The notes beneath the pieces are model-generated. The model worked only from the letters and a program-made list of their open reading frames with translations. It was not told the DNA's origin and searched no databases. Position numbers and translations under genes: made by a program. Below are positions 11,740-62,050 of a DNA stretch of 64,000 nt, piece after piece (position 1 is the first letter of the stretch; the number at the start of each line of letters is the position of its first letter). This DNA comes from Candidatus Saccharimonadota bacterium (GTDB taxonomy: Bacteria > Patescibacteriota > Saccharimonadia > CAILAD01 > GCA-016700035), in the NCBI GenBank assembly GCA_046350755.1, contig JAXLZV010000001.1, positions 160,216-224,215 on the forward strand. Direction: 5' to 3'.

Positions 11740-11741
11740 GA

Positions 11742-14700
11742 TTATACCTCCTCTTCCTTAGTGCTTGATTCATCAGGGACAGCCTCAGCCTCAGCGAGAA
11801 CTTCAAAATCATCGAGTGAGGCAGTTTCGGACATATCTACAACTGCGTTTTCCTCTGGACCAGTGCCAACGATCAATTCTTCATCGGCCATATCTACGGC
11901 TTCGGCTTCAGTCTGTAATTCGAGTTCACGATCAGCGTCGACTTCGACGTGATTCTGCTCGAGCTCAACCGCCAAACCGAGTGACTGCAATTCTTTGACC
12001 AGCACGTTAAAGCTCTCCGGAACGCGTGGACCTTTGATCTCTTCGTTCTTGATGATCGACTCATAGGCTTTTGAGCGGCCGATGACATCATCTGATTTGA
12101 TCGTCAGGACTTCTTGCAGCGTGTGGGCTGCGCCATAGGCTTCGAGTGCCCAGACTTCCATTTCACCAAAGCGCTGTCCGCCCATCATTGCCTTACCACC
12201 GAGTGGCTGCTGTGTGACCATAGCGTATGGTCCAGTCGAGCGCGCGTGAATCTTGTCATCAACCATGTGATGCAGCTTCAGCATGTACTTGTAGCCAATG
12301 GTCGTCTTCTGGTCGAATGGTTCACCGGTAAAGCCGTGGTAAAGCTGGGCCTTACCGTCTTCGGACAGACCGGCTTTTTTCAATTCGGCCTTGATGGTAT
12401 CGATGTCCACGCCGTCGAGGACCGGGCTAGCGACTTTGTAGCCGAGCGCCTGAGCTGCCCATCCAAGGTGGGTTTCAAGAATCTGACCGATATTCATACG
12501 AGCGCCGATTCCAAGTGGGTTCAATACGATATCAACCGGCGTGCCGTCTTCTAGATAAGGCATATCTTCGACTGGCATTACCTTTGAGATCACACCCTTG
12601 TTACCGTGACGACCGGCCATCTTATCACCGACCGAGATCTTACGGAGCTGGGCCACAGCGATATAAATCTGCTGCATGACACCCGATGGCAAATCATCGC
12701 CGTTTTCGCCAGACAGAATCTTCACGCCGACGATCTTACCGGAGCTTCCATTTGGCATCCGCAAGGAAGTGTCCTTCACTTCACGGGCCTTCTCACCAAA
12801 GATAGCGCGCAACAGCCGCTCTTCGGAACTGAGTTCAGTCTCACCCTTCGGGCTAATCTTACCTACCAGAATATCACCGGCGGCGACTTCTGCACCGAGG
12901 CGTACGATCCCGCCCTCATCAAGATCCTTGAGCGCTTCATCTCCAACATTTGGGATATCCCGCGTCACGATTTCAGGACCAAGCTTGGTATCACGGACAT
13001 CAATCTGATGCGTTTCGATGTGGATTGAGCTATAACGATCATCCTGAACCAGGCGCTCCGAAATAATGATCGCGTCTTCGTAGTTATGACCGTCAAAAGC
13101 CATGAAGGCGACGAGCACGTTCTGTCCAAGGGCAAGTTCGCCATCGACTGTCGACATACCGTCCGCCAGCACATCACCCTTCTTGACCTTATCGCCAGCC
13201 GTTACAGCACAGCGCTGAGTCATGGCCGCACCCTGGTTGGAGCGGATAAAGCTCATGAGTTCATACGTAGCCGTCTTGCCATTCTTATATTTCACCGTAA
13301 TAGCATGAGCGGTAGCGCTGGTGACTTCTCCATCACCCTCGGCCAAGATAACCTGACCTGAGTCTTCGGCCACGCGGCGCTCGATACCGGTGCCTACAAT
13401 TGGAGCCTGAGGCTTCACTAAAGCCACGGCCTGCTTCTGCATGTTTGCACCCATCAGTGCACGACGAGCATCATCATGTTCCATGAATGGGATGAGCGCT
13501 GCTGAAACTCCAACAATCTGCTTTGAGGAGATATCTTGGTAGTTCACGTCGTCAGCTGACAGCTCGGCAGCTTCGCCACCGACACCTCGAGCTGAAACCA
13601 CTGCACTCGTAAAGTAGCCGTTATCGTCGATCGCGATGTTAGCCGGCGCAATCACTGCCCGCTCTTCGTCGAAAGCATCAAGGTATACAACTTCCTTGGT
13701 AACCCGAGCTTTGACTGGGATTTCTTGAATGTCAGCCTTTGCCAACTGCTTAGCGGCAGCCTCGGTGATTTTGTCACCAGCCTTCACGATCACCGCCCCC
13801 TTGGCGTCTTTGATTTGGCGTCGAGCAATTTCACCAGCGGCTTTAGCTGGCGTGACTGTGTTGACCACCTTCAGGTACGGAGTTTCGATGAAGCCATACT
13901 CGTTGACCTTGGCATAACTCGCCATGGTCGAAACCAAACCAATATTTGGTCCTTCCGGCGTTTCGATCGGACAAATACGGCCGTAGTGAGTACGGTGCAC
14001 GTCGCGAACTTCAAAGCCAGCCCGTTCGCGGTTGAGACCACCAGGGCCCATCGCGTTCAAGCGACGCTTGTGGACGATTTCATCAAGTGGGTTGGTCTGC
14101 GACAGGAATTGTGAGAGTTGGTGGGAGGCGAAGAATTCCTTCACGCTGGCAACAATCGGACGCACGTTGATCATCAGTGATGGCGTGACCGTCTCTGGAT
14201 CAGCCACTGACATACGATCTTTGACGATGCGCTCCATACGAGCGATACCAATGCGGAAGCGTGCTTGGATAAGCTCACCAACCATCTTCAAGCGGCGGTT
14301 ACCTAAGTGATCGATGTCTTCCGAAGGTGCGCCTTCGTTGGTCATGCGAATGACTTCCTTCACGATCGCCACAAAGTCTTCGACCCGCAGGATGCGGTTT
14401 TCACGAGTATTTTTGACGTTTAGTGCCAAGCGTTTATTAAGCTTATACCGACCAACCTTTGAGAGATCATAGCGCTTAAAGTCGAAGAACATAGAGTCAA
14501 TCAGGCTCTTTGAGTTCTCAACTGTCGCCAAGTCGCCAGGGCGAATCCGCTTATAGACCTCCATTAAGGCTTCGGCAGTCGTGCTTGATGAATCTTTAGC
14601 GATGGTTTCGGTAATAAAACGTGTCTCACCAGTATCAACATCTGAGAAGAGTTGCAAAAGATCAGAGTCCGTACCATAGCCAAAAGCCCGCAACAGTGTT

Positions 14701-28807: not shown

Positions 28808-31288
28808 CTACTTCACGCTGGCAACGCGATTACTAACCTCTAGCTTTACTTCGCCCTTGATAGCTTTCACGGTTACCACATCCCCCTCAACGATATATTC
28901 ATGTAGGAGCGCTTCGGCAAGCGGATCCTCCACGAGTGTTTGGATAGCTCGACGCATTGGCCGCGCGCCGTTATTTACGTCGTACCCCTTCTTTATCAGC
29001 AGGGCCTTCAAGCTCGGGGCGAATTTCAGTACCACGTCTTTTTCGCGCAGTCGCTTACCGAGATCCTTGAGCTGCAGATCGATAATCGAGCGAACATCTA
29101 TCTTTGAAAGAGCCTTAAAGATCACGATATGATCGACTCGGTTTAAGAATTCTGGACGGAAAGTGCGCTTAAGCTCCTGCTGAATGGTGCTCTTAGTGGC
29201 AATATGCAGTCGTTCGAGTTCTTTTTGCTCATCGGCAGTATCGGTTGTAAAGCCAATTTTTGCCTCTTGGTAGAGCGATTTAGCCCCAACATTACTAGTC
29301 ATAATGATGATAGTATTACGAAAATCAATCGCTCGACCTTTCGCATCGGTCAGCTGCCCATCTTCGAGGATCTGCAACAGCATATTGAAGACGTCCGGGT
29401 GAGCCTTTTCGATCTCGTCAAACAAAATCAGGCTGTATGGACGACGGCGAACTTGCTCAGTCAGCTGGCCGGCATCTTCGTAACCGACATAACCAGCCGG
29501 CGCCCCAACCAGGCGGGACACGTTGTGCCGCTCCATAAACTCAGACATATCGACCTTAATCAGTGCATCTTTATCATGAAAAACTTCTTGCGCCAGCACG
29601 CGGGCTAGTTCAGTCTTGCCAACTCCGGTAGGCCCGAGAAAAATGAATGAGCCAATCGGCCGATCGGCGTGCGCAATGCCGGTACGGCTGCGACGAATCG
29701 CCTTTGCAATCGACTCAACTGCTTCATCTTGCCCAATAACGTGACGCTTCATGGTTTTATCAAGCCGCTTGAGCTGCTCAGTCTCAATCTTTACCAGACG
29801 GGTCAACGGTATGCCGGTAGTCTGCGAGATAACCCGAGCGATTTGCTCCTGATCAACGGTAATCAGCTTACGTGAGGTATCGACCTTTTCTTGAGCCGCA
29901 ATCTTCTCCTCGAGGACACTAGCCTCCGCTTTCAAACGGGCGGCGTATTCAAAGTCTTGATTGTAAACTGCCTCTTCGATCTGTTCGTTAACATCCTCGA
30001 GTCGTACTTGTAATACCTTTAATTTCTTGGAAGTACCACCCCGTTCAATCCGAGCTAGCGAGGCAGCTTCGTCAATCAGGTCAATCGCTTTATCCGGCAA
30101 GAATCGATCCGAGATATACCGCTTGGCAAGCTTAGCTGCCTCCTCAATCGCCTCGTCGGTAATCACGACTTGATGGTGATCTTCGTAGCGAGACTTGAGA
30201 CCCTTGAGCACCTCAATCGTCTCATCGACCGTCGCTTCTGGCACAATCACCGGCTGGAAACGACGCTCCAGGGCGGCATCTTTTTCGATATGCTTACGAT
30301 ATTCGTCCAGCGTAGTAGCGCCGATAACCTGCACCATTCCCCGCGATAGAGCGGGTTTCAAAATATTGGCTGCATCGATAGCTCCCTCAGCCGAGCCAGC
30401 GCCCACGACGGTATGAAGCTCATCGATAAAGAGAATGATATCTTTATTATCAGTTACCTCTTCGATCAGCTTTTTCAAGCGTTCTTCGAATTCACCACGA
30501 TACTTCGTACCGGCGATAACGGTCGCCATATCCAGCATCACAATACGCTTACCATGCAGCACATCGGGCACTTCTTCATTGATTATTCTTTCCGCCAAAC
30601 CTTCAACAATCGCCGTCTTGCCCACACCCGGCTCACCGATGAGGACAGGGTTATTTTTCTGACGACGATTCAGAATCGAAATCATCCGATCAAGCTGCAC
30701 CTTACGACCAACCATCGGATCGAGCTCGCCAGCTTTGGCTTTTTCGGTCAGATCGATGCCAAAGTGGTCAAGAGCCGGTGTATCGCTATCTCGATTCTTG
30801 CGCCGGCCTGCTCGCTTGTCGTTATCACCATAGACTGGTGTCTGAGCATTTAAATATTGTTCGAGTTCAGAGCGAACATTATTTGGATTAACAGAAATCT
30901 CCCGCAACAATACATTCGCGCGCGCATTCTTCTGCGTCAGAATCGCGTAGAGTAAGTGCTCCGTTCCCGCATACGGCTGGCCGAATTCTTGCGCGATGCG
31001 TAAGGATAGGGCGATGGTTTTTTTGGCAGTCTGTGAGAGAGACTGCAGAGTATGCGTCGACACGACACCAGTTGGCGCCAGGGTCAGCTCAAGTTTATCA
31101 AGCGTTACACCTGACTGAGCCAGGATCTTTGAGCCGATCGAACCCTGGGTCTTGAGAACTCCAAGTAGCAGATGCTCAGTACCGACATAGACCGAGCCGA
31201 GCCCGGCAGCAATCATACTGGCATGCTCAAGACTGCGTTTAGCATTCTCAGTGAAACGGTCAAATTGTGGGGGCAGATTCTGATCCAT
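28808..31288 (-). CDS. clpC: ATP-dependent Clp protease ATP-binding subunit ClpC
   Basis: Two Clp-N repeats, D1 ([23 protein letters not shown]), a UVR-like linker, D2 ([25 protein letters not shown]) and GARPMRR. Confidence 0.92.
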
Positions 31289-31348: not shown

Positions 31349-32578
31349 CTAAGCCGACTCTTCTGTGTCGGACGGCGTGGCAGCAATTTCAGAACTTTCA
31401 GGAGTATCAGATTCTTCAGATGTATCGGTTTCGGCCGACTCACCGGCGGACGGCTTCTCAACCGCGGCGATGAGCTCATCTTCAGGATTTATCTTCTTTT
31501 TGGGTGTCTCAGCGGCAGCTTCCGCTACTTCTTCGATCCCAGCAGCGTCCGAACCATCGATGTCGATATTCCAGTCAGTCAGCTTGGCAGCCAAGCGGAC
31601 ATTCTGTCCAGAGCGGCCGATAGCTAAGGAAAGCTGATCCTCAGGGACTTTCACTGATGCACGATGCTCAGTTTCATCAACTGTCACTTCGGCGATATTT
31701 TTGGCTGGTGAGAGAGCGTTGGCGATATAGTGCTTAATATCCTCGTCAAAGGGAATAATATCGATTTTCTCATCGCCGATATTGGCCATCACAGCCTGAA
31801 CACGGGTCCCGCGTCCACCGACAAACGTACCAACGGGATCAACGCCTTCGACATTGCTTTTGACTGCTATCTTCGTACGCGCACCAGCCTCACGAGCGAT
31901 ATTGACGATTTCAACATTACCGGTGGCAATCTCTGGTACTTCCATCTCAAACAGTCGCCGAATCAGATTCGGGTGACTGCGGCTGACAACAATCTGTGGA
32001 CCCTTGAGGGTATTCTCAACGCGCACAACATAAACCTTCACGCGCTGACCCGGGTAGTACCGCTCGCCGTGGATTTGTTCAGATGGGAACATGATGCCAG
32101 TCGTGCGACCGAGATCAACGAAGACATTGCCGTGCTCGACGCGCTGAACTGAGCCATTCATGATGGTATCTTCTTTATCCTGATACTCGTTATAAATCAC
32201 CTCACGTTCGGCTTCGCGAATGCGCTGGATGATAACCTGCTTGGCGGTTTGGGCAGCTACCCGACCAAAGTCCTTATTCACATCTTCGTATTCAACCGTC
32301 TCGCCGACTGCGGCCGACTTGCGAATAACCTGCGCATCACCTACCGAAATCTCTAAATGAGGATTCTCGACCTCAGCCACAACTTCCTTCGTAATAAAGA
32401 TACGTGGATCGCCGGTCGATGGGTCAACCTCAACTCGTACTTCCTGATCCTTATCACCGAAGTCTTTTTTATACGCGGCAATGAGGGCCATCTCAATCGT
32501 CTCCATGACGATGTCCTTAGAGATGCCTTTTTCTTCGCAAATTTGCTCGATAGCTGAAATGAATTGATTCTGTTGCAT
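31349..32578 (-). CDS. nusA: Transcription termination/antitermination factor NusA
   Basis: An N-terminal NusA domain, S1 and two KH domains, plus an acidic C-terminal tail. Confidence 0.9.
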   Translation of the reverse strand: MQQNQFISAIEQICEEKGISKDIVMETIEMALIAAYKKDFGDKDQEVRVEVDPSTGDPRIFITKEVVAEVENPHLEISVGDAQVIRKSAAVGETVEYEDVNKDFGRVAAQTAKQVIIQRIREAEREVIYNEYQDKEDTIMNGSVQRVEHGNVFVDLGRTTGIMFPSEQIHGERYYPGQRVKVYVVRVENTLKGPQIVVSRSHPNLIRRLFEMEVPEIATGNVEIVNIAREAGARTKIAVKSNVEGVDPVGTFVGGRGTRVQAVMANIGDEKIDIIPFDEDIKHYIANALSPAKNIAEVTVDETEHRASVKVPEDQLSLAIGRSGQNVRLAAKLTDWNIDIDGSDAAGIEEVAEAAAETPKKKINPEDELIAAVEKPSAGESAETDTSEESDTPESSEIAATPSDTEESA

Positions 32579-32752: not shown

Positions 32753-33118
32753 TTATCCATCGAGTACTAGGCAATCTGGGTAATGTTGAAGTGTGCAGTT
32801 ATCGATTTCGCCGCCAGCCACCACGACATCAAATCGCACCGATCGATCTTCCCAGCCATACTCAACCAGCCAGGCTTGAGCACCTGCCAGCAGGCGGCGC
32901 TGTTTATCAAGCGAAATCGCTGCCTCACCGCCACCAAAATCAGCATTTGCCCGGTACTTCACCTCCACGAATACCACCGTCTCACCATCAAGCATCACTA
33001 GATCAAGCTCGAAAAAGCGCCTGCGAGCATTGTGCTCCACCAGTTGCAACCCGCGCGTTGTCAGCCACGCTAAAGCCTGAGCTTCAGCGACTTGCCCGAC
33101 GGCCGTTGTATTCGCCAT
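32753..33118 (-). CDS. yraN: YraN-family (UPF0102) endonuclease-fold protein
   Basis: GE..A..WL...G and ELDLV...VVFVEVK motifs typical of UPF0102; it sits immediately downstream of rnhB, as in many bacteria. Confidence 0.75.
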   Translation of the reverse strand: MANTTAVGQVAEAQALAWLTTRGLQLVEHNARRRFFELDLVMLDGETVVFVEVKYRANADFGGGEAAISLDKQRRLLAGAQAWLVEYGWEDRSVRFDVVVAGGEIDNCTLQHYPDCLVLDG

Positions 33119-33725
33119 ACTCCACCCCCTTCATAAATGACCGCCGGTGCAAGGGTGTTAACCCATGCTTGCGAAGCGCCGCCAAATGCCGGGGCGTACC
33201 ATAGCCGACATGCGTCTCAAAGCCATACTCCGGATAAATGAGGGCTTGCTCGCGCATGTAGCTATCCCGTTCGACTTTTGCCAAAATCGACGCTGCTGCG
33301 ATAGATGCACATACCTGGTCACCTTTCACAAGCGTTCGTACCGGCACATCATAACGTAAATAATTGTGTCGCCCATCTAGGTACACCACGTCGGGTGTCA
33401 GCTCGATTTGCGACCAAGCCTGTCGACCGGCGGCGATCAGGCTAGCGGTCAAACCATGCTGATCGATATACTCAGGCGCGATATGCACCACCACCCAACT
33501 GGTCGCGCTGGCCCGAATCACGATCGCCTTCTCTTCACGCTGCTTGGCTGATAACAACTTCGAATCCACCACCGGCTCAGAAAAGTCCTCTGGCAAGATG
33601 ACTAGCCCAAGTGAAACTGGGCCAGCCAATGGTCCGCGACCGACTTCATCCACGCCGGCCACCAGAGCAAACCCCTCGATTCGAGCGGCTTCTTCCACCT
33701 CATGCGTCGCCCATGTCCTTGCCAT
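33084..33725 (-). CDS. rnhB: Ribonuclease HII
   Basis: GVDEVGRGPLAGPV (DEVGRG active site); length and remaining motifs are consistent. Confidence 0.88.
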   Translation of the reverse strand: MARTWATHEVEEAARIEGFALVAGVDEVGRGPLAGPVSLGLVILPEDFSEPVVDSKLLSAKQREEKAIVIRASATSWVVVHIAPEYIDQHGLTASLIAAGRQAWSQIELTPDVVYLDGRHNYLRYDVPVRTLVKGDQVCASIAAASILAKVERDSYMREQALIYPEYGFETHVGYGTPRHLAALRKHGLTPLHRRSFMKGVEYGEYNGRRASR

Positions 33726-33810
33726 ATAACTAGTTTACTACGAACAAAATACGAATGTCTAGTCTAAAAAAATCGGGCCTCACGTACACGCGAGACCCTG
33801 ATTGGGCTGA

Positions 33811-34734
33811 TCATGTATCGACCCACTGCGCCACAAGCCGCTCCATGCTAGACGGACCGTATTGCCAGTAGTTCGCTGCTACCTGTACAGCCGCGGCACC
33901 GCAGGCCAGAAACTCCGAGACATCACTCCCCGATGTGATCCCTCCGACGCCGACCACCGGGATCGGTGAACCGCAGCCGCGCAAGGCTTCGACCCACTGC
34001 AGGACTTGGCCGAGGGCAATCGGCTTGTAGGCTGGTCCGGAAAAGCCACCATACTTGGTCGATAGATATGGCTTGCCATCGTCGATGACGACGGCGTTGG
34101 GGAACGTATTGGTAGAAGCGATATAGAGCCGATTCTCAACCGTGCCAGCAGCCAAGCCAGCAATTCGCTCCGCGACGTGAGCAAGCTCTACCGGATTTGA
34201 ATAAGGTGAGACCTTTAGACCAATCGGCCCCCTCCAGAAGGTGGCGAGATCCAAGAGATGAGTCTCAATCCCTTCGATGTCAAAGCTCAAGATCAGCTTT
34301 TGCTGCCGTTCTGACCAAACGTTCGGACAGCCGAGATTCAGCTCGATTGCATCCAGCTGCCAGTCCTTGAAGTGCTTCAGGAGCCCATACCAACCAACCG
34401 GGTATTCCATCGGAGCAAACGAGAGAATCACCCGCTTGCCAGCTTCGCGAGCCATACCCAGCAGCATCAGCCAACGCGAATGCCAATAGTCGTAGTAATC
34501 AAGGCCAGGATCAGGCAAGCCCATGGCATTGAGCATATAGCCAAGCTCATGGTCGTAATACGAGCGCGGCTCTGGATTTCCTACCCGCTCGCTATACGTA
34601 CCGGTCAGCGACCCAAGCACAATAGCGCTGGCAGACGAGTTGACTGCCGCTTCGAACTCTGCGAGGGTCTTGACCATGCCGGGAGCAACCATGATGGGGT
34701 GCTCAAGTTCCATACCTGCAAGCTTGATCGTCAT
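33811..34734 (-). CDS. pyrD: Dihydroorotate dehydrogenase, class 1A-like (catalytic Cys)
   Basis: RVGNPEPRSYYDHELGYMLNAMGLPDPGLDYY, ELNLGCPNV (Cys base), GGFSGPAYKPIALGQV and VVGVGGITSG all resemble L. lactis PyrDA closely. Confidence 0.8.
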   Translation of the reverse strand: MTIKLAGMELEHPIMVAPGMVKTLAEFEAAVNSSASAIVLGSLTGTYSERVGNPEPRSYYDHELGYMLNAMGLPDPGLDYYDYWHSRWLMLLGMAREAGKRVILSFAPMEYPVGWYGLLKHFKDWQLDAIELNLGCPNVWSERQQKLILSFDIEGIETHLLDLATFWRGPIGLKVSPYSNPVELAHVAERIAGLAAGTVENRLYIASTNTFPNAVVIDDGKPYLSTKYGGFSGPAYKPIALGQVLQWVEALRGCGSPIPVVGVGGITSGSDVSEFLACGAAAVQVAANYWQYGPSSMERLVAQWVDT

Positions 34735-34808
34735 GTTAGCTACTTTCGTAAAAGGTACATTCGGTCCGGGTTATTCTGCAAGACTATTGATAATATCTCA
34801 AGCATAAA

Positions 34809-34838
34809 AAGAACCGGTCTGGAGAAAAAACTCCAAAC
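34809..34838 (-). terminator. Candidate terminator between pyrC and pyrD
   Basis: On the minus strand, CCGGTTTGGAG-TTTTTT-CTCCAGACCGG (10 of 11 bp) is followed by a T-rich run. Confidence 0.4.
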
Positions 34839-34853
34839 CGGCTATGTACCAGA

Positions 34854-35921
34854 TCAATCAGCGTTATTACCAAGATCACTGAACCAGAGAACTGATTCGA
34901 CTTGCCAATCGAGGATCTCGCCGGCCTTCCAAGGCTTCATGCCAAAGTATTCCTCCGGCACTCGCCATGGCTGGCGCCACAGAGTGATGCGGGGCCGCCG
35001 CTCGAGTGAGGGTCCGACCCCATAGAAGCTCGCGCCATTTGCGCACATGAAAGCCAAGAAATTCTCCCACTTTTCCGCACCGCCCTGTGCGTCGAAGTGC
35101 TGCCAGAGCACCGGAATTGCCACTGGGCTCGACCACACGCCGGCCGCTCCACCGAGCTTGCGTTCGATGAGATGTGGCGCGGAATCTGAGCCGAAGAAGA
35201 TCTTCGGTCGCCCAGCCGCCTCGAGGATGATGCGCGCCAAGTAGTCACGATCATCTGGCGTCTTGGCGATCGGCATGCAATTGCAATGCGGATCCTGTAT
35301 GGCATCCATCTGGGTGATGAATGGATGATGAGCCGTGATGCTGGCCGCCACCGTCTCCGGCGACGTCAACACATAATCGAGCATGCGCCGGTCGGACACG
35401 TGTTCGACAACGATCTTGAGCTCAGGGTAGGCGTCCACCAACCACTGAAGATGAGGAATGAAGCCGAATTCTCGCTTTTGAGGATCCGACTCCACGTCAG
35501 GTGTCAGCTCAGCGTGAAGACACAACACCATGCCAACGTCTTGCATCGCAGCCAGAACCTCTGGCTGAAGATCACGCGGCGAAGATAGGCCGCTGCCCGA
35601 GTTGGTCGTACCACCATGCGGATAATACTTGGCGGCAATAGCCAGCGGATGGGCGGCCTCGATATCCGACGCCGTCGTGTCGGGCGTGAGATACAGGGCC
35701 ATCCGCGTCCCAATCGAGTTGAGCGCACGCGAGTGGCCAACCAGCCGACCGTAATAGTCGGCCACCGCCTCGGCGGTCGTCACTGGCGGTGTCAGGTTCG
35801 GCATCACCAGATTGTTCAAGAACTGATGTCCGGATAGATCCACGACCCGTTCCATGAGAATGCCGTCGCGCAGGTGGACGTGCCAATCGTCCGGTATCGG
35901 CATTTCGATTCGAATAGTCAT
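34854..35921 (-). CDS. pyrC: Dihydroorotase, class II (E. coli PyrC type)
   Basis: N-terminal DWHVHLRDG metal-ligand motif; the 355-aa length and overall similarity match type II DHOase. GC is visibly elevated, shown by the many long antisense ORFs here. Confidence 0.85.
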   Translation of the reverse strand: MTIRIEMPIPDDWHVHLRDGILMERVVDLSGHQFLNNLVMPNLTPPVTTAEAVADYYGRLVGHSRALNSIGTRMALYLTPDTTASDIEAAHPLAIAAKYYPHGGTTNSGSGLSSPRDLQPEVLAAMQDVGMVLCLHAELTPDVESDPQKREFGFIPHLQWLVDAYPELKIVVEHVSDRRMLDYVLTSPETVAASITAHHPFITQMDAIQDPHCNCMPIAKTPDDRDYLARIILEAAGRPKIFFGSDSAPHLIERKLGGAAGVWSSPVAIPVLWQHFDAQGGAEKWENFLAFMCANGASFYGVGPSLERRPRITLWRQPWRVPEEYFGMKPWKAGEILDWQVESVLWFSDLGNNAD

Positions 35922-35992
35922 CTCGATGTCTTTCGGTTCGTAGGTACAAGAACTCGCCTATTCTGCCACTTTTTGACTCAATTTTCAAGCAT

Positions 35993-36016
35993 AACAAAAA
36001 CGCCCTGAACGGGCGT
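35993..36016 (-). terminator. Rho-independent terminator after rplS
   Basis: On the minus strand, ACGCCC-GTTCA-GGGCGT is followed by TTTTTGTT. Confidence 0.5.
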
Positions 36017-36035: not shown

Positions 36036-36650
36036 CTACTTCTTGGCTTGGCTTTTATCGTCTTCGGCGTCAGCCTTATCAAGACCTGATTGCGTTTCGT
36101 CAGCTGGCAAGGCTTTTTCGTCATCGCCATCAGCCGAGTCGGTGTCGGCTTCTACTGCTTTGGTCTCTTCTTTGGCCAGATCTTCGGTTGATTCAACAAC
36201 GGCATCTTCGTTGTCGGTAATATCAGCTTCGTTGGCAGCGACTTCAGCTTCGAGGGCAGCAATCTCATCGGTTGTACGATGATCAGCTTCATTAGCTCCC
36301 GCCTTATCAAAATCCTGCTCAACCAAGCGAGCCTTCTTACCGCGCAAACCACGCATATACGAAAGAAAGGCACGACGCACTTTAGCTCGACGCATGACTT
36401 CAATCTTTTCAACGTTTGGCGAGTGCACAAACCAGCTCTTCTCAACACCAACACCCGAAGCAATCTTGCGTACGGTCAAGTAGGCATTGCCTTCATTCGG
36501 CTTGCGGTAGCGGATAACCAGGCCTTCAAATACCTGAGTACGGGTCTTATTTCCTTCGCGAATAATCTGGTGAACCCGGACGGTGTCACCTGGCTTAATC
36601 ACGGGCAGCTTGGCTTTGAGCTGCGACTTTTGCATAACATTGGCTTGCAT
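36036..36650 (-). CDS. rplS: 50S ribosomal protein L19 with a ~90-aa acidic C-terminal extension
   Basis: The first ~115 aa are canonical L19 (VIKPGDTVRVH...GNKTRTQVFEG...RKIASGVGVEK). Then comes an Asp/Glu/Ala-rich tail ending in KK. Confidence 0.9.
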   Translation of the reverse strand: MQANVMQKSQLKAKLPVIKPGDTVRVHQIIREGNKTRTQVFEGLVIRYRKPNEGNAYLTVRKIASGVGVEKSWFVHSPNVEKIEVMRRAKVRRAFLSYMRGLRGKKARLVEQDFDKAGANEADHRTTDEIAALEAEVAANEADITDNEDAVVESTEDLAKEETKAVEADTDSADGDDEKALPADETQSGLDKADAEDDKSQAKK

Positions 36651-36777: not shown

Positions 36778-37188
36778 ATGCCTCAGCAGCACGTCACCCA
36801 CATCCGCACCATCAAGCGGATCTACGGCAACGCCTACGTCCGCCTCAACGGCAAGCGACCGGTCATCTTCGGTGATCGGGAGGACGTCGAAGTCCTGAAT
36901 GCCACCGGCATCGATCACCCCATGGAGCTCGAGGAACGCGTTCTCAGCGCCATCGAGCTCCTTCCTGGCCATTCCCAAGAGCCCATGCTCCTTTCCATGT
37001 CCGGTGCCCAGGGCGTTGAGATCACTCGCCACCACGGGGTGAACTACTACCGCATCGAGATCTGTGTGAAGGGCAGGTGGCGGCGCCTGCATGGCACCAA
37101 GGCCCAGCGTGCCATCGAGCACGACCTGGCGCTGGCGAAGAAGGCCAGGGTCGACCTCGCTTCTGATGCGACCGCCCCATCTGTGTGA
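36778..37188 (+). CDS. Small hypothetical protein P1 (136 aa), the first of three tandem related small proteins
   Basis: ATG with RBS; GC-rich codon usage. EICVKGRWRRLHG and AIEHDLALAKKA loosely echo the ECxCG and A..HY..VL..AL segments of P2 and P3. Confidence 0.5.
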   Translation: MPQQHVTHIRTIKRIYGNAYVRLNGKRPVIFGDREDVEVLNATGIDHPMELEERVLSAIELLPGHSQEPMLLSMSGAQGVEITRHHGVNYYRIEICVKGRWRRLHGTKAQRAIEHDLALAKKARVDLASDATAPSV

Positions 37189-37303
37189 CTTCACTAGTCA
37201 CCCGCCCGCAACCATTCATTTGGTTGCGGGCATTGTTATTGATCACGCATGATATCTATGTTTTAATCACGGCAGTACCTACGACCCTCCTGGAGGAATT
37301 GTT

Positions 37304-37603
37304 ATGCCCGGTTTCATCTTCCCTGAAGGACTTTTCATCTGCGGCCACACGGTCAAGCGGCTCATGGTGCCACAGAAGCAAGGCACGGTTCCGCTTATCC
37401 GACACTTCGCGGAGTGCAGTTGTGGCGAGCGCGTCGAAGTCACCGGTGTGATCGGTGACGAGATCACCGCTGAGTATGAACGAGCCCGCCTCACGCATTA
37501 CGTCATGGTTCTCAACGAAGCCCTGACGGAAGCAAGCTTCAGCGGTGGTGGCGAGTTGCTGGCCGGATCAGATGCCGATGACGGCGAACGGCTCGGTGGC
37601 TGA
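37304..37603 (+). CDS. Small hypothetical Cys/His protein P2 (99 aa)
   Basis: ICGHTV...ECSCGERVEV...ARLTHYVMVLNEAL is clearly paralogous to P3. Its TGA stop is followed 1 nt later by the P3 ATG. Confidence 0.55.
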   Translation: MPGFIFPEGLFICGHTVKRLMVPQKQGTVPLIRHFAECSCGERVEVTGVIGDEITAEYERARLTHYVMVLNEALTEASFSGGGELLAGSDADDGERLGG

Positions 37604-37604
37604 G

Positions 37605-38009
37605 ATGGACCTTTCCTTCTCGCTCAATAAGGGTATTCTCGGCCATCGCGTGCACAGCTACGCCTCGGCGACACCAACCGGACGTTGGTTTCGGGTCGAG
37701 CGAATAGCCACTGTCGAATGCAAGTGCGGCGCCAAGCTGGAGCTGGACTGGCGAGACCTACCCGAACACTTCACTACATGGGGCGAGCGGATGGCGCTAG
37801 CACACTACCTGAATGTGCTTCACGCAGCGCTCGCACAAGGCATTCAGGCTACCAGTTGGCCGCCGCCGGAACCAGTTCCGCACTCAGGCGAACTCGGGCG
37901 AGACACACTCGCGCCCGATCACGACTACGAAGCCGATGATGATTTCGGTTTTCCCGATCCAGACGCACCAATCCCACGACGCCAACATCCACCCGGCACC
38001 ATTGGGTAA
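37605..38009 (+). CDS. Small hypothetical Cys/His protein P3 (134 aa), paralog of P2
   Basis: ILGHRV...ECKCGAKLEL...MALAHYLNVLHAAL aligns with P2 motif-for-motif. It has an acidic, proline-rich C-terminal tail. Confidence 0.55.
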   Translation: MDLSFSLNKGILGHRVHSYASATPTGRWFRVERIATVECKCGAKLELDWRDLPEHFTTWGERMALAHYLNVLHAALAQGIQATSWPPPEPVPHSGELGRDTLAPDHDYEADDDFGFPDPDAPIPRRQHPPGTIG

Positions 38010-38065: not shown

Positions 38066-38794
38066 TCAGCGGCCGTGATGACCAAGCGTCTCGATCTGAA
38101 CTGCTTCATCCAGACAATCCGACACGATTCCACAGAGCTCATCAGCAGCCTCATCCAGCCGATCGTTGATGACTACATGAGGCCATGTGCCAAGGATCTC
38201 CGGGATCTCCCACCTGGCGCGCATGAGTTTTTGCTCGATGACCGTCTCCTCGTCTCCGCGACCGACCAAGCGCATTTCGAGCGCTCCCAGCATTTCGGTC
38301 TGAACGATGATCGATCCGGCAATGGCGAACCAGTAGCGACCCTGCCCATCGTCAAGCAATGCTAGACGCTGGGCTTCCTGCAGCCGACTCGTTCCGGCTG
38401 GCGTCAGACAGGGCGGCAGGATGCCGATCAGATGAACGGCCGGGAAATTCTCCACCAACATTGACTTGGCGAATAGCTGGAGGGCGCCATTGACATCGAG
38501 ATCTCGCAACTCGATGCCTGGCGTGCTCGGATTGACGTAGGAGCCGTAGTAGCCGCCAGTGGCATTCTGCGAGTGCTCGACGATACTGCCGGCCGCGCGT
38601 TCGCGCATGAAGTCTTCGACCGACAGATAGACGTACTTCGAATTGCCGGCGTCGTCATAGTCGTCTTCGCGCGGTTGGCGCGTCGTCGCCTTGCGGCCGA
38701 CAATCAGTTGCGGGAACTGCTTCATGAGGTACTTCATCAGCGTGTCCTTGCCGACACCTTCCGGCCCAGAGATACAGAAAATGTGCGAAGTCAT
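38066..38794 (-). CDS. gmk: Guanylate kinase homolog with a ~35-aa insertion
   Basis: ISGPEGVGKDTL (P-loop), ATTRQPREDDYDDAGNSKYVYLSVEDF (GMP-binding TTRxPRxGE..G.DY.FVS.E.F), EH...GGYYG, ILPP and RGDEETVIEQKLMRA...VVINDRLDEA all match E. coli Gmk segment-for-segment. It is GC-rich like the rest of island 1. Confidence 0.8.
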   Translation of the reverse strand: MTSHIFCISGPEGVGKDTLMKYLMKQFPQLIVGRKATTRQPREDDYDDAGNSKYVYLSVEDFMRERAAGSIVEHSQNATGGYYGSYVNPSTPGIELRDLDVNGALQLFAKSMLVENFPAVHLIGILPPCLTPAGTSRLQEAQRLALLDDGQGRYWFAIAGSIIVQTEMLGALEMRLVGRGDEETVIEQKLMRARWEIPEILGTWPHVVINDRLDEAADELCGIVSDCLDEAVQIETLGHHGR

Positions 38795-42489: not shown

Positions 42490-42604
42490 TGTACGCCAAG
42501 AACGCGAGCGTTTTAATCTTGACTTTTATGCTCATTTATGATATCGTGCGCGAGTTCTATGTAATCGCATGGATAACCTTCACAACCTAGAGAAAGAGGA
42601 CGCC

Positions 42605-43288
42605 ATGAAGTCTTCAGGTGAGTTGCTCCGAGAATATCTCGAGCAGCAGCCCGAGAAGATCAAGGATGTGCGCAATTTCTGTAATGTTGCTAGCAAGACC
42701 GTGAGATCGTGGCTCAAGGGTACCAACCCGAAGGGCATCACACAGTGTAGACTCTTCGTCTACCTACTCGAACAGCAGCTAGCGCCAGCAGAGTTGCTCA
42801 AGACCGAACCCGACATCATTCTCCTTGCCGTTCTGGTGGCTCACGACTATGTGAGCTCTCAAGAGGCCATGAAGGTGATGGGCTCTACCTCCAAGTCTGA
42901 TCAGCAGCTCTGGGGTTGGATCCGTAGCGACACACAGCCGCTGCCCAAAGCCCTAGAGCTCCTGCAAGACTGGCTGGATGCAGTCGATGGCGATCGCTCA
43001 CGAAGACTGATCGCCGCAGAATTTCTCGGTACGACAACCGTGGCGGAGCAATCCCCCGCAAACGTCATTCCGTTGTCGTTCGACTCGAGCGACCAGATCA
43101 TCGAGAATTTGGCAGCATTGTTGTCAGCGGTCTACCCACTCGCCAAGCGCGTGGAAGCCGATGACTTCAGTAATGCCGACCGTGAACGCCTTCGGGCGCT
43201 GATCGGTGAAGACCAGTTCTTCAAGCTCACGAACGCCCTGACCCGCCTCTCCGGCACCAAGGCACGTTCGTACACCCAGTCCATTTAA
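42605..43288 (+). CDS. Hypothetical protein with a putative N-terminal helix-turn-helix
   Basis: An AAAGAGGA RBS lies 6 nt before the ATG at 42605 (alternative ATG at 42569). EYLEQQPEKIKDVRNFCNVASKTVRSWLKG resembles an XRE-type HTH. The C-terminus is unknown. Confidence 0.5.
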   Translation: MKSSGELLREYLEQQPEKIKDVRNFCNVASKTVRSWLKGTNPKGITQCRLFVYLLEQQLAPAELLKTEPDIILLAVLVAHDYVSSQEAMKVMGSTSKSDQQLWGWIRSDTQPLPKALELLQDWLDAVDGDRSRRLIAAEFLGTTTVAEQSPANVIPLSFDSSDQIIENLAALLSAVYPLAKRVEADDFSNADRERLRALIGEDQFFKLTNALTRLSGTKARSYTQSI

Positions 43289-43311
43289 CCCAACACCCCA
43301 AGGAGTACGGC

Positions 43312-45009
43312 ATGACCCGCCGTCGACGTCCCCGTCCAACCCAGGGTGGCCGTAAGGCCCCCGCGACCCCGGCGACACCTCAGCCCATTCGGGATAAGGT
43401 GTCGTTCAACCAGGGCAAGGTCATCATGCACCTTGCCAAGTCGACCTACACCACGTTGATCCAGGTGATCGCTGAGTGCGTCCAGAACGCACTCGACGCC
43501 GGTGCAACCGTCATCGACATCGCTGTCGATGAGAAGCGGCGCAGCATCGTCGTTGCCGACAACGGCGGTGGCGTGACTCTGGAGAAGTTCCACGAGGCCC
43601 TTGGCTCCGTTGGGCATGGGATCAAGGATCCCGGCTCACTCGGACGCTTCGGCCTCGGCCTCATCTCGCCGCTCGATAAGTGCGACTACTACACCTTCAG
43701 CTCCTGGCTTCCCGGCGAGTCGAAGGGGTGGTGCTGGACCTTCCGGGCCGGTGAGATCGAGGCGATGGCCGACGAAGTCGACATCCCTCGGGCTGGTGCC
43801 AAGCGTCACGCTGGCGCTGAGTGGAATACCATCGTGCGCATCCACCGCTACACCTCCGACTCGCAGACGGCCGCAATGACGGCTGAACGCGTCGAGGAAT
43901 TCGTGCAGTCCAAGCTGGGACCCACCATGCGCAAGCGCGGTGTGACCTGCCGGCTGCACTTCGGTGGCCCAGACGGCGAGGTCGTCCAGAAGACGATCAA
44001 GCCGACCGACTTCACCGGTGAGCCTTTCGAGATCACGATCTACACCGAGCCCGACGCGGGCGAAGTGGAGTTCGAGCTCTACCGCGCCCGCAAGACGACC
44101 AAGGGTCGTCAGGGCATGGTGAGTCTCTCGGAAGCGGATGCCCCATACCCGATCACCTTCACCGAGTTCAAGCGGCAGGCTCACGCCTTCCTCGGCGACG
44201 ACGTGAAGAAGGCTCTCAGCTCCGGCTACTTTGAGGGCATCATTCGAGCCAAGAAGGTGGAGCTGCATCCCAACCGCCGCAAGTTCGTCTGGAATGACGC
44301 GGTTGTCGGGCTCTGCATCGCCATCGAACAGTGGTTCGAAGACATCGGGCACAAGCTCTACACCGATGAGCAGGTCCAGGAAGAGGAGGCTCGCCTCCAG
44401 CGCCTGGGCGTGCAGACGCTCGACCGGCTGAAGGATCTCCTCAAGCTGGAAGAGTCGGAACACCTGCGCAAGATCATCGAAAGCCTGCATGTCGGCTCGA
44501 TCGGCAGTGGGCACAACGAGCTCCCCAGCTCGGGGGACATGGATGAGCGTGGTTTGCGCTCTGGTCAGGGCGGCACGGGCAAGCCCCGCAACCGCAATGG
44601 TCAGACCAAGCCACGTGATCCGTCGAAGCCCAAGCAGCCCGAACGGACCGGCGACAAGCCGGGTGTCTCGGTTGGCCCCGAGGGCCAGCACCGCAAGGTG
44701 GTGCGCGACAGCTCGACCGGTATCTCCATCTGCCACGAGATCCTGCCCGGTTCCGACCGACTGTGGGAGATCGACGCAGCGTCGGCGATGATCTACATCA
44801 ACGTGCGTCACCCGGTGTTCTTGCTCGTCGAGCACGCCGACACGTACGTCTTGCAGCTGCAGGAGTGGATCGTGCTGCAGGCGCTGTCGTTGCTGATGTT
44901 CCCGGTCGACAGCCGAGAGCTCCTCCACGACTACGCAGACAGCTACGCTCGCGAGTTCGTGGTGGTCTCGATCCTCGGATCGAGACAGCGCCGCCGCGGT
45001 AGCGTCTGA
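43312..45009 (+). CDS. GHKL/Bergerat-fold ATPase (MORC / MutL-N / HATPase_c_3-like) with an unknown C-terminal region
   Basis: AAGGAG RBS. The N-box is IAECVQNALDAGAT, the G1 box is VADNGGGVT and the G2 box is LGRFGLGLISP. Downstream is a Gly/Lys/Pro/Arg-rich low-complexity linker, then a C-terminal domain of unknown function. Confidence 0.7.
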   Translation: MTRRRRPRPTQGGRKAPATPATPQPIRDKVSFNQGKVIMHLAKSTYTTLIQVIAECVQNALDAGATVIDIAVDEKRRSIVVADNGGGVTLEKFHEALGSVGHGIKDPGSLGRFGLGLISPLDKCDYYTFSSWLPGESKGWCWTFRAGEIEAMADEVDIPRAGAKRHAGAEWNTIVRIHRYTSDSQTAAMTAERVEEFVQSKLGPTMRKRGVTCRLHFGGPDGEVVQKTIKPTDFTGEPFEITIYTEPDAGEVEFELYRARKTTKGRQGMVSLSEADAPYPITFTEFKRQAHAFLGDDVKKALSSGYFEGIIRAKKVELHPNRRKFVWNDAVVGLCIAIEQWFEDIGHKLYTDEQVQEEEARLQRLGVQTLDRLKDLLKLEESEHLRKIIESLHVGSIGSGHNELPSSGDMDERGLRSGQGGTGKPRNRNGQTKPRDPSKPKQPERTGDKPGVSVGPEGQHRKVVRDSSTGISICHEILPGSDRLWEIDAASAMIYINVRHPVFLLVEHADTYVLQLQEWIVLQALSLLMFPVDSRELLHDYADSYAREFVVVSILGSRQRRRGSV

Positions 45010-45030
45010 TCCTTTCTCTCTAGTTGTTTC

Positions 45031-45062
45031 GCCGGAGCCCTTTGGGCTCCGGTTTTCTTTTT
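45031..45062 (+). terminator. Strong rho-independent terminator after the GHKL ATPase gene
   Basis: GCCGGAGCCC-TTT-GGGCTCCGG followed by TTTTCTTTTT. Confidence 0.65.
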
Positions 45063-45081
45063 ATTCAGCGTCATGAATCTA

Positions 45082-45110
45082 TTGACTTTAAACCCTTATG
45101 ATTGTAATAT
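45082..45110 (+). promoter_or_regulatory. Candidate sigma-70 promoter for the 45155..45835 gene
   Basis: TTGACT, a 17-nt spacer and TAATAT, with an AAGGAG RBS before the GTG at 45155. Confidence 0.4.
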
Positions 45111-45154
45111 ATTTTTACTGTTCGCCCGAACATTCGTACCTTACAAGGAGCACT

Positions 45155-45835
45155 GTGGATACACCAACCGAACCCACCAAACGACAGCCGGGAGCCGCAT
45201 CGACGCGCTCCTGCAGCCTGAACGAAGCTCTGTCGAGCTTCTATGCCCTCAAGGGATGGCTCAGACGGCGCCAGCTCGATGACTGGCTGCCACAGCTCGC
45301 CATCGTCTGGACCGACCGCAACGGCCATGCCGTTCTGGCAATCCGTGGCGACAACGCCATGGGCCCTGCACCGCAGGATGCCAATCAGGCGGCCCAAGCC
45401 GCATTGCGCCCGCACTGCATCGAGCAGGGAGCTGCCACCATTCAGACAGCCGCCAAGCAGGTGCTGGGGGCAGTTGGGGTCTACGGACGCAGTCCAGCCG
45501 ACAACCATCTCGTCGCCTGCCTGGCAGCGGAGTTGGTCTTCGAGCCAGATATGCCAGCAGAACTCCTTGAGGTCTGCGTCGAGGAGCGCTTCCAGCAAGA
45601 CGGCCTCGAAGTCCCAGACGTGCCATTGGCGGTCTCGCCAGGTGTGTCATCATTCGCAGGTTTGCAAGCGGTGATGGCTGGAGCTGGCGTGTTGAGGCTC
45701 TTGCCTGGCCAAACCTACGGCTGGCCGAGCCAGCTCGATCCGCCGCTGACGCAACCACAAGCCGGTGTCAGACTCATCACCGAGCGTGACATCCCCGGCC
45801 ACGTACCGGGGCATGGTGGTGGACTCTTCGGCTGA
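45155..45835 (+). CDS. Hypothetical GC-rich protein (last gene of island 2)
   Basis: A GTG start 5 nt after the AAGGAG RBS; Ala/Gly/Pro-rich with no recognisable motif. The ORF-track start at 45098 runs into the AT-rich promoter and is unlikely. Confidence 0.45.
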   Translation: MDTPTEPTKRQPGAASTRSCSLNEALSSFYALKGWLRRRQLDDWLPQLAIVWTDRNGHAVLAIRGDNAMGPAPQDANQAAQAALRPHCIEQGAATIQTAAKQVLGAVGVYGRSPADNHLVACLAAELVFEPDMPAELLEVCVEERFQQDGLEVPDVPLAVSPGVSSFAGLQAVMAGAGVLRLLPGQTYGWPSQLDPPLTQPQAGVRLITERDIPGHVPGHGGGLFG

Positions 45836-57407: not shown

Positions 57408-57860
57408 ATGAGTAAGGCCGACGAACGGAATGACATCACTGTCGAGCAGTACATTGCCTCTCTCGAAGATGCAACGCTGCAAAACGACGCGCTAACTATC
57501 GCCGAGATCATGCAGCGCATCAGTGGCGAAAAGTCTCAACTGTACGGCTACGGCACGATAGGCTTCGGTGTCTACAAATATCATTACGAGAGTGGCCGCA
57601 AGGGTGAAGCCCACACCCTCGCCTTCTACCCTAGGAAAGGTAAAATTACCGTTTATCTCATGGATGGCACGACACGTCACGCACAGCTCCTCGCCAAACT
57701 CGGGAAGCACATGATTACCGGCTACTGCATTTATTTCAAGCGGCTCAGCGACATCGAGCTACCGATCCTCGAGCAGATCATTCAAGCTTCCTACGATCAC
57801 ATTACTGACCTTTCGAAGGATGGTCCCATCACTCAGAACATGTGGCGAACCGAGAAATAG
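57408..57860 (+). CDS. DUF1801 (YdhG-like) domain protein
   Basis: A 150-aa ORF with an A..Y.A...DATLQND layout typical of DUF1801; family assignment is from memory of the domain pattern only. Confidence 0.45.
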   Translation: MSKADERNDITVEQYIASLEDATLQNDALTIAEIMQRISGEKSQLYGYGTIGFGVYKYHYESGRKGEAHTLAFYPRKGKITVYLMDGTTRHAQLLAKLGKHMITGYCIYFKRLSDIELPILEQIIQASYDHITDLSKDGPITQNMWRTEK

Positions 57861-57864
57861 TCAC

Positions 57865-60640: not shown

Positions 60641-60645
60641 TGAAA

Positions 60646-61846: not shown

Positions 61847-61847
61847 C

Positions 61848-61923: not shown

Positions 61924-61926
61924 CCG

Positions 61927-61955: not shown

Positions 61956-61965
61956 ATGTCGACTT

Positions 61966-62042: not shown

Positions 62043-62050
62043 TAAAAAGT

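Follow-up and report, generated by a model that had tools for sequence, protein, structure and literature searches.

We analysed a stretch of 64,000 nucleotides from the metagenome-assembled genome of a Candidatus Saccharimonadota bacterium (hereafter the window) and focused on its region 33811-35921, in which the list of open reading frames (ORFs) places exactly two genes, both on the minus strand. The first, pyrC (34854-35921, 355 aa, NCBI 'U0526_01055'), is predicted to encode a class II, Escherichia coli-type dihydroorotase (DHOase), and the second, pyrD (33811-34734, 307 aa, NCBI MFO0955115.1), a class-1A-like flavin mononucleotide (FMN) dihydroorotate dehydrogenase (DHOD) with a cysteine as catalytic base. 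The pair is bordered by two further minus-strand genes, rplS (ribosomal protein L19; 36036-36650; TIGR01024, 116 bits) upstream and rnhB (RNase HII; 33084-33725; NF000595, 209 bits) downstream, which serve below as the anchors of the slot. Locally, the genes are arranged in the order dnaE, gmk, three small ORFs on the opposite strand, rplS, pyrC, pyrD, rnhB, yraN, nusA, clpB and radA, where gmk (38066-38794, minus strand) encodes a guanylate kinase-like protein of 242 aa that scores 86 bits against TIGR03263, for a cut-off of 160. Both PyrC and PyrD of the window are also found in dozens of metagenome assemblies.

The PyrC protein matched the TIGR00856 model (pyrC_dimer) over its full length, residues 5-341 aligning with model positions 2-340, with a score of 263.3 bits (E 3e-78) that lies below the equivalog cut-off of 292.95; the match to the pyrC_multi model was far weaker (E 1e-5). 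Its best matches in the PDB were class II DHOases (5vgm with 195 bits and the E. coli enzyme 1j79 with 157 bits), and all the PDB matches listed were chains of about 337-372 aa. The alignment to 5vgm spans the ligands of the binuclear metal centre (HxH, carboxylated lysine, two histidines and an aspartate), which correspond to H14, H16, K98, H136, H174 and D246 and are invariant in 22 members of the clade, as are the substrate and loop residues R18, N42, T105, T106 and H250. We take R18, N42, H250 and T105-T106 to be the equivalents of E. coli R20, N44, H254 and T109-T110. Judged from these sequence features, and in line with the class first proposed for it in a preliminary description of this DNA, PyrC is predicted to be a zinc-dependent class II dihydroorotase converting N-carbamoyl-L-aspartate into dihydroorotate. 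With E. coli PyrC (1j79) and 5vgm it shares a length of about 350 aa, the full-length match, the metal ligands, the substrate residues and the Thr-Thr loop and, as is usual for this class, its gene stands alone, neither fused nor adjacent to a gene for aspartate transcarbamoylase. It differs from them in being at best 40-43% identical to members from outside the Saccharibacteria, in remaining under the TIGR00856 cut-off, and in belonging to a fast-evolving clade restricted to Saccharibacteria, with deeply divergent alleles.

The PyrD protein scored 125 bits against PF01180 (DHO_dh) and 142 bits against the class 1A model NF002702, well under the cut-off of 301. A phmmer comparison with the PDB ranked class 1A enzymes first (98-103 bits), ahead of class 1B (65 bits) and class 2 (at most 47 bits). 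The AlphaFold2 model (predicted local distance difference test, 95) is a single domain that begins directly at the barrel, with no N-terminal membrane domain, and a Foldseek search with this model returned class 1A enzymes for all of the top 50 structures (template modelling scores of 0.78-0.83). The catalytic cysteine C136, within the motif NLGCPNV, is invariant in 40 sequences, where class 2 enzymes have a serine. Likewise invariant are N69, N133, N138, K174 and N209, matching N67, N127, N132, K164 and N193 of the FMN and orotate site of the Lactococcus lactis enzyme. No member of the subfamily has a lysine matching the flavin-proximal Lys43 of L. lactis (VLGSLTG instead of ITKSST). This lysine is also missing in the PyrD of Patulibacter, encoded in a canonical pyrR-pyrB-pyrC-carA-carB-pyrD operon, so that its loss appears compatible with DHOD function.

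PyrD would therewith be a class-1A-like FMN dihydroorotate dehydrogenase forming orotate from dihydroorotate, which agrees with the assignment in the preliminary description to class 1A with a catalytic cysteine, the score under the NF002702 cut-off notwithstanding. It resembles PyrDa of L. lactis (1dor, 1jub) and the fumarate-dependent trypanosomatid enzyme in the cysteine base within NLGCPN, the asparagine and lysine residues and the GNPEPR loop. Family scans of the window named no pyrK-like gene; the absence of a nearby PyrK gene and of an N-terminal membrane domain, as well as the nearest folds, all of class 1A, are further shared traits. The electron acceptor is probably soluble, for example fumarate. 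The differences are an identity of only 24-30%, the score of 142 against 301 bits and the missing lysine at the Lys43 position. The possibility that pyrC and pyrD are decaying was considered and rejected, both ORFs being intact, their catalytic residues invariant and their ratios of nonsynonymous to synonymous substitution rates (dN/dS) 0.08-0.20 in close relatives.

Each of the two genes has its own putative signals on the minus strand. Downstream of pyrC, an intrinsic-terminator-like hairpin (34812-34843) combines a 13-bp stem with a T-run; its folding energy of -22.3 kcal/mol (z -5.6) was equalled in none of 200 shuffled sequences, in agreement with the earlier proposal of a terminator between pyrC and pyrD. 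A second hairpin of this type follows pyrD (33775-33798; 10-bp stem and T7, -20 kcal/mol, z -4.7) and a third, terminator-like one follows rplS (36000-36016; -13.2 kcal/mol, z -4.3). Upstream of pyrC lies a sigma-70-like consensus match (35960-35988; TTGAAA-17-CAGAAT with a TG, 9/12), upstream of pyrD another (34773-34801; TTGAGA-17-CAGAAT, 9/12, a match to the consensus only), and a promoter-like match also precedes rnhB. With a promoter-like match and a strong terminator each, pyrC and pyrD therefore look monocistronic. An Rfam scan of 32-39 kb gave no regulatory RNA.

The remaining genes of the pathway were sought within the window. Neither tblastn with PyrB, CarA, CarB, PyrR, PyrE and PyrF from related loci nor NCBIfam and Pfam scans of the window ORFs revealed a further pyr gene in the 64 kb, and the absence of pyrB, pyrE and pyrF, already remarked on, is borne out by both approaches.

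Base composition had been the starting point of the preliminary description, in which pyrC, pyrD and gmk were suspected of having been acquired piecemeal from a high-GC source. The GC content is 52.4% in the window and 56.6% in the region 33811-35921. It amounts to 0.585 in pyrC and 0.564 in pyrD, with values at third codon positions (GC3) of 0.683 and 0.640, respectively; rplS, next to pyrC, has a GC of 0.502 and a GC3 of 0.49. Relative to the 31 ORFs that measure 200 aa or more and lie outside GC-rich islets (GC 0.516±0.014, maximum 0.544; GC3 0.554±0.038), a baseline that is partly circular as the islets were left out on the grounds of their own GC, pyrC lies 4.8 standard deviations (SD) higher in GC and 3.4 SD higher in GC3, and pyrD 3.3 and 2.2 SD higher. 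Robust statistics over all 54 ORFs gave z=2.7 for pyrC (rank 6/54) and z=1.8 for pyrD. Measured gene by gene, both thus stand out in composition, pyrC as richer in GC than its neighbours and pyrD as moderately elevated, just as had been described. The excess resides mostly in third codon positions, GC1 and GC2 being raised by only about 0.03, and the codon-usage distance to the core is unremarkable (B=0.32 for pyrC and 0.28 for pyrD versus 0.26±0.07).

The pile-up of alternative reading frames over pyrC is real as well: eight ORFs of at least 60 aa overlap the gene, of which only four are antisense, not at least six as first counted, the other four lying on the same strand. The density of such shadow ORFs at pyrC (7.5/kb) is the second highest in the window, where the median is 3.2, and it follows GC across the window (r=0.52). 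The antisense ORFs were rejected as real genes, their GC by codon position having the pattern of shadow frames and their density tracking GC.

Raised GC and GC3, and a transcription unit of its own for each gene, are what would be expected had pyrC, pyrD and gmk been acquired recently and separately from high-GC donors, such as actinobacterial hosts, with their composition not yet ameliorated. Cultured Saccharibacteria live on Actinobacteria. Yet codon usage is close to that of the core, and the locus does not have the make-up of a recently acquired island: its composition is atypical, but the genes are not absent from syntenic positions in relatives, as shown next, and the borders lack the usual marks of insertion. 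The border neighbours are rplS and rnhB rather than mobility genes, a search for flanking direct repeats at the borders of pyrC-pyrD gave none, and no tRNA gene is near, the closest lying about 15 kb away.

A scan of species-representative genomes, complemented by homologue look-ups, yielded 11 further loci from Saccharibacteria (numbered L004 to L105) that share the backbone of the window; most of their identities to the DnaE, NusA and ClpB of the window fall within 76-91%. The slot rplS / pyrC(-pyrD) / rnhB-yraN-nusA is conserved among them, within a wider frame of dnaE…rplS / slot / rnhB-yraN-nusA-clpB, and pyrC occupies the rplS-rnhB slot in 11/11, pyrD in 8 of them. The accompanying genes vary. 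The pair pyrC-pyrD is found in the window and in L005, L006, L007, L009, L019 and L104, and in L105 it is joined by a reverse-strand pyrF. In L008 and L017, pyrC is accompanied by a reverse-strand DHOD-like gene, a PyrE-like gene, a type-2 PyrF gene, a hypothetical gene and a gene of the AstE/AspA family. L016 has pyrC alone plus the stump of this DHOD-like gene (35 aa, 77% identity, E 7e-15). L004 has pyrC alone, and there the pyrC terminator abuts the rnhB leader at a clean junction in which no remnant of pyrD was found. The gmk gene is not at the window-equivalent position in L008, L016, L017 and L105. Relatives thus have syntenic pyr genes, which, as detailed below, share the composition of those in the window, though no complete pathway was seen in any of them. 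A piecemeal acquisition into this genome is contradicted by all 11 loci, in each of which pyrC sits at this position and is likewise raised in GC3.

The reverse-strand cluster (L008 11185-15575, L017 9200-13590) contains a very divergent DHOD-like gene (ACPNSG motif, 59 bits) and a hypothetical gene of 189 aa; its AstE/AspA-family amidohydrolase could, speculatively, hydrolyse N-carbamoyl-aspartate. Outside the group, L014, which is not assigned to Saccharibacteria, has a pyrD-pyrC-pyrF-pyrE operon with a PyrD of the same subfamily and a class II PyrC that passes the TIGR00856 cut-off (376 bits). The CPR-like genome of L013 (CPR, Candidate Phyla Radiation) has a pyrD-pyrF-(split pyrE) cluster (8001-13318) that adjoins a diversity-generating-retroelement-like pair (bAvd and reverse transcriptase) and a prophage-like block with a terminase and methyltransferases. 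The contexts of two further PyrF relatives, L100 and L102, are other loci that could not be linked to window-type genomes. Since the slots of sister subclades hold more pyr genes and two lineages have undergone deletions, the direction of change is loss; by parsimony, the slot would be an old pyrimidine cluster eroding gene by gene rather than one built up piecemeal.

The compositional excess is likewise shared. At every locus, the pyr genes and gmk have a GC3 of 0.53-0.80 versus 0.37-0.62 for their neighbours, for instance 0.63-0.67 versus 0.38-0.50 in L005, 0.75-0.80 versus 0.46-0.60 in L006 and 0.62-0.72 versus 0.43-0.59 in L017. Where present, pyrF and the pyrE-like gene are also GC3-rich relative to their neighbours, and the excess extends to L014 and to an orphan pyrC of Uhrbacteria, its size differing between lineages from +0.03 to +0.26. 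The gmk gene, described as foreign beforehand, has a GC3 of 0.70 in the window; it is GC3-rich, and fast-evolving and mosaic in the manner of pyrC and pyrD, but the same excess is found in its relatives (0.60-0.80). Synonymous divergence (dS, by the method of Nei and Gojobori, NG86) between the window and its relatives is saturated. A composition inherited from one old transfer should therefore have decayed by now, and the persistence of the excess means that it is maintained, which also speaks against a recent and un-ameliorated import.

Such upkeep could be observed in close relatives. We polarised synonymous third-position changes in L005 and L007, with L009 as outgroup, and compared pyrC, pyrD and gmk with nine core genes. 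Changes from A or T to G or C (W→S) occurred at 0.217 per AT site in the three genes versus 0.118 in the core (Fisher p=4e-6), while the reverse changes (S→W) occurred at equal rates per GC site (0.136 versus 0.139, p=0.85). These rates imply that GC3 would settle at an equilibrium of 0.62 for pyrC, pyrD and gmk and of 0.46 for the core. Across 12 genes of four close genomes, nucleotide identity was negatively correlated with GC3 (Spearman -0.71, p=0.01). The GC3 excess is thus a long-standing, shared trait upheld by a current substitution bias, and not the trace of an un-ameliorated recent transfer. Concerning the cause of the bias, the likeliest candidates are GC-biased gene conversion at a recombination-prone locus and a repeated import of GC-richer alleles. 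In recombining bacterial genes, GC-biased gene conversion raises GC3 in that AT→GC changes become more frequent while the GC→AT rate stays as it was. The high GC3 of pyrC, pyrD and gmk, their AT→GC excess and their unchanged GC→AT rate correspond to this signature; the process is here only a candidate, however, as the counts would be no different under selection or with imported alleles of higher GC.

Divergence at the slot is both fast and patchy. Among L005, L007 and L009, NusA, ClpB, DnaE and RadA are 97-99% identical; for PyrC the identity is 67-84%, for PyrD 85-90% and for Gmk 79-90%. The dN/dS ratios of pyrC, pyrD and gmk (0.08-0.22 versus 0.01-0.05 for core genes) reveal a relaxed but real purifying selection. 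When L104 is compared with L005, rplS and the rplS-pyrC spacer are 97-100% identical up to the start codon of pyrC; identity drops to 42-85% from the first pyrC codon, is 80-89% across pyrD, and returns to 100% from the 3′ end of pyrD and rnhB onwards. Breaks are also found within a gene: residues 1-120 of the PyrC from L009 are 47-48% identical to L005 and 82-87% to P0007/P0008, and its residues 300-370 are 93% identical to L005. In these segments, dN and dS climb together. Such patchy divergence is the mark of stretches having been replaced, through homologous recombination, by divergent alleles that stem from other Saccharibacteria. Of the lateral transfer first postulated for these genes, the exchange itself is therefore real, as cassette replacement and as intragenic mosaics, but it takes place between Saccharibacteria and not from a high-GC clade. 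Within its 21-kb locus, moreover, L104 is almost the same as L005 between about 7.8 and 13 kb and almost the same as L007 between about 14.7 and 21 kb; either recombination is frequent in this population, or the metagenomic contig is a chimera.

The homologues of PyrC group in a clade of some 24 clusters, with identities of 50-77%, whose labelled members are Saccharibacteria. Beyond it, identity drops sharply to 40-43%, the level of generic class II enzymes including those of Uhrbacteria (42%) and Sphingomonas. In neighbour-joining (NJ) trees the clade was monophyletic in 100/100 bootstraps and sister to the whole generic class II set; no labelled high-GC group encloses it, contrary to the nesting within such a clade that a foreign origin of pyrC had led one to look for. 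PyrD forms a similar small clade, the next relatives of which, at 37-43%, come from CPR-like genomes, Patescibacteria and high-GC Actinomycetota, and an NJ tree with a very distant outgroup and no support values places the Saccharibacteria clade outside the labelled actinobacterial cluster. A recent transfer into this genome can be excluded on these grounds, while an ancient transfer into the ancestor of the clade is allowed by the trees. Two observations could still be counted in favour of recent high-GC donors: the labelled PyrD relatives at 37-40% are mostly high-GC Actinomycetota (Patulibacter, Solirubrobacteraceae, Frankia, Acidimicrobiales), and this type of PyrD adjoins gmk in the pyr operon of Patulibacter. 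Against them, the nearest homologues from outside are at most 43% identical, the Gmk of the window is only 26-28% identical to that of Patulibacter, and the DHOase of the Patulibacter operon is a 448-aa protein of the PF12890 type and not of class II.

The reading that we consider probable on the whole is that of an ancestral slot cluster which is losing genes, is subject to exchange within the clade and keeps up its GC3 excess. According to this reading, pyrC and pyrD would be intact, separately transcribed genes for the enzymes of steps 3 and 4 of uridine monophosphate (UMP) synthesis. The slot would once have housed a larger pyrimidine cluster, of which pyrC, pyrD, pyrF and the pyrE-like gene survive in varied combinations across sister subclades, lineages shedding the slot genes one at a time. 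Related lineages would trade these genes, either in cassettes some 2 kb long or in parts of a gene, with the conserved flanks allowing homologous recombination. Finally, in the close relatives where it was measurable, the GC3 excess is upheld by AT→GC synonymous substitutions at about twice the core rate.

Several points weigh against this reading. Searches of the 64 kb recovered none of pyrE, pyrF, pyrB and carAB, which leaves a role in UMP synthesis unproven. The inference of an ancestral cluster draws on 12 loci and parsimony, and the trees are all NJ trees in which most sequences carry no taxon label. Both the NG86 estimates of dS and the polarisation by parsimony are crude at such divergence and skewed composition, and imported tracts confound the polarisation of synonymous changes. 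The yraN and PIN genes are fairly fast-evolving and yet not GC3-rich, so that GC3 is not accounted for by divergence alone. The loci used to measure recombination and the W→S bias are L005, L007, L009 and L104, from which both are carried over to the window by homology. Metagenomic contigs may moreover be chimeras of strains, which mimic recombination; even then, the divergent alleles present at the same locus in one population would stay real.

Among the other explanations, a single ancient acquisition from outside the phylum by the ancestor of the clade, followed by vertical descent, loss and exchange within the clade, has the best prospects, and we regard it as possible, if rather doubtful. 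It concerns only the origin of the genes and is compatible with the explanation given above for their present state. It accords with the long stem of the PyrC clade, whose sister group is a mixture of class II enzymes, the Sphingomonas type among them, with a PyrD family common to Actinomycetota, and with the lack of the whole UMP module in typical Saccharibacteria (PMC7786006, supplementary file 3). On the other hand, related genes exist in other CPR bacteria, namely the Uhrbacteria PyrC at 42%, the L014 operon, whose taxon is unassigned, and abundant PyrF relatives, and de novo pathways are almost complete in Ca. Lutisaccharimonas, of the family UBA4665 within the Saccharimonadia (bioRxiv 10.64898/2026.09.16.751625). 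It is therefore equally possible that the genes were retained vertically from a CPR ancestor and have since been widely lost.

A second alternative bears on function. PyrC and PyrD could act outside canonical UMP synthesis and only interconvert carbamoyl-aspartate, dihydroorotate and orotate, exchanged with the host; this could take the form of a metabolite hand-off, of a fumarate-linked redox valve or of a reductive breakdown of orotate. Reductive orotate breakdown occurs in Clostridium oroticum. Such a role seems unlikely to us. In its favour are the lack of any other pyr gene in 64 kb, the relaxed selection, the occurrence of pyrC by itself in the slots of L004 and L016, and likewise of an orphan copy in Uhrbacteria, and the AstE/AspA amidohydrolase, a plausible N-carbamoyl-aspartate hydrolase, in the L008/L017 cluster. 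When the PyrF of L008 was used as query, no match could be attributed to this genome, and the same held for cluster membership, which is weak negative evidence. A metagenome scan with a PyrF alignment was uninformative: among the matches listed, the CPR homologues were at most 48% identical and none lay on the 645-kb contig of one relative. The opposing evidence is that the additional slot genes elsewhere are pyrF and pyrE-like, that is, of the biosynthetic direction, that the same PyrD family includes the operon-encoded PyrD of Patulibacter, and that L014 has pyrD-pyrC-pyrF-pyrE; the searches for pyrE and pyrF, moreover, covered the 64 kb of the window, out of a contig of 643,864 bp. The pyrF and pyrE-like genes in the slots of the sister subclades point toward UMP, while the retention of pyrC only in two lineages and the Uhrbacteria orphan keep open a role in the exchange of pyrimidine intermediates with the host.

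Beyond the eroding, exchanging slot outlined above, one may go further and suppose that pyrC, pyrD and gmk are a recombination hot spot of epibiotic Saccharibacteria. Divergent functional alleles would be swapped there as promoter-to-terminator cassettes, perhaps under diversifying or frequency-dependent selection exerted by host metabolite supply or inhibitors, with GC-biased gene conversion leaving a permanent GC3 excess. We put this forward as a tentative idea of low probability.

Expression-linked codon usage offers a different account of the excess, in which highly expressed genes favour A/U-ending codons and weakly expressed metabolic genes show a GC-richer baseline. The lowest GC3 values indeed belong to rplS, rpsL and nusA, hypothetical and accessory ORFs of the window also reach a GC3 of 0.63-0.70, and pyr genes are GC3-richer than their neighbours in unrelated CPR loci too. 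However, yraN, the PIN gene, pbp, radA and rnhB have a core-like GC3 though high expression is not expected of them, lineages differ in their excess (from +0.03 to +0.26), and this excess coincides with recombination tracts, which leaves this account quite improbable. The recent, separate acquisition from high-GC donors, finally, is very improbable, given the same slot and the same composition at the 11 other loci and the different aspect of a genuine insertion in the same window, which has a GC3 of 0.83 and is absent from the relatives.

This insertion, at 42569-45835, is GC-rich and lineage-specific. It consists of ORFs of 239, 565 and 245 aa with a GC of 0.55-0.63 and a GC3 of up to 0.83, and lies between dnaE and DUF5665-YtxH-MscS-GatB, where L017, L019, L104 and L105 have short, unrelated ORFs. 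Its 565-aa protein belongs to the GHKL ATPases (HATPase_c_3), with an N-terminal part that weakly resembles TmtA and type II restriction enzymes, and the segment may be a defence or mobile module. By contrast with the pyr slot, it shows how a lineage-specific insertion looks in this window. A 340-aa ORF without a family match (60640-61662; GC 0.60, GC3 0.77) lies directly upstream of four tRNA genes (Val, Ala, Val and Leu, 61770-62526) and may be another gene inserted at a tRNA hot spot.

Other features of the window were recorded alongside. Between gmk and rplS, the three small opposite-strand ORFs (36778-38009; 136, 99 and 143 aa) have a GC of 0.55-0.61 and no family matches; a homologue was detectable for only one of them, in L009 and L019. 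The equivalent segment is hypervariable among otherwise near-identical genomes, L009 showing 5-40% identity to L005/L007. L19 (204 aa, 36036-36650) and NusA (409 aa, 31349-32578) both extend past their conserved domains into long, acidic, low-complexity C-terminal tails, and the length of the L19 tail is conserved across relatives. The window has two genes for ClpB/ClpC-like AAA+ chaperones (181-2835 and 28808-31288), the first of which scores 403 bits, far under the ClpB cut-off of 1232. This reduced CPR genome also encodes a bacterial type IB topoisomerase (58376-59356; PF01028, 147 bits, plus Top1B_N_bact). Two ORFs at 57408-58329 with mirror-image GC statistics were considered as an inverted duplication, which was rejected as no inverted repeat was found.

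CPR bacteria and Saccharibacteria are commonly portrayed as lacking the ability to synthesise nucleotides. A literature search returned no paper linking either group with dihydroorotase or dihydroorotate dehydrogenase, and a paper on the G6 clade had nothing specific on these enzymes. Two published cases are comparable. Like Ca. Lutisaccharimonas, the present clade illustrates that some Saccharimonadia keep pyrimidine biosynthesis against the CPR norm; the KEGG module is near-complete there, whereas only steps 3 and 4 were seen here, in a slot that is losing genes. With Sac_1 and Sac_2 (PMC7786006) it shares the phylum, a reduced genome and the need for external building blocks, but these two have no enzymes of the UMP module, and in the present clade pyrC is retained, in some members together with pyrD, pyrF or the pyrE-like gene.

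In this clade of Saccharibacteria, a portion of the pyrimidine pathway is preserved at one constant position in the chromosome, with several stages of loss visible among relatives, and the series of slots provides a concrete case for the erosion of a pathway in epibionts. It also calls for caution with horizontal transfer calls based on composition, as the GC excess here marks genes that recombine between related lineages and not a recent GC-rich import. If the slot proves to be a recombination hot spot, composition would single out those genes of a CPR genome that can be exchanged, and not those of foreign origin. Should pyrE and pyrF turn out to be missing from the genome as a whole, PyrC and PyrD would be an orphan pair, which would indicate an exchange of pyrimidine intermediates with the host.

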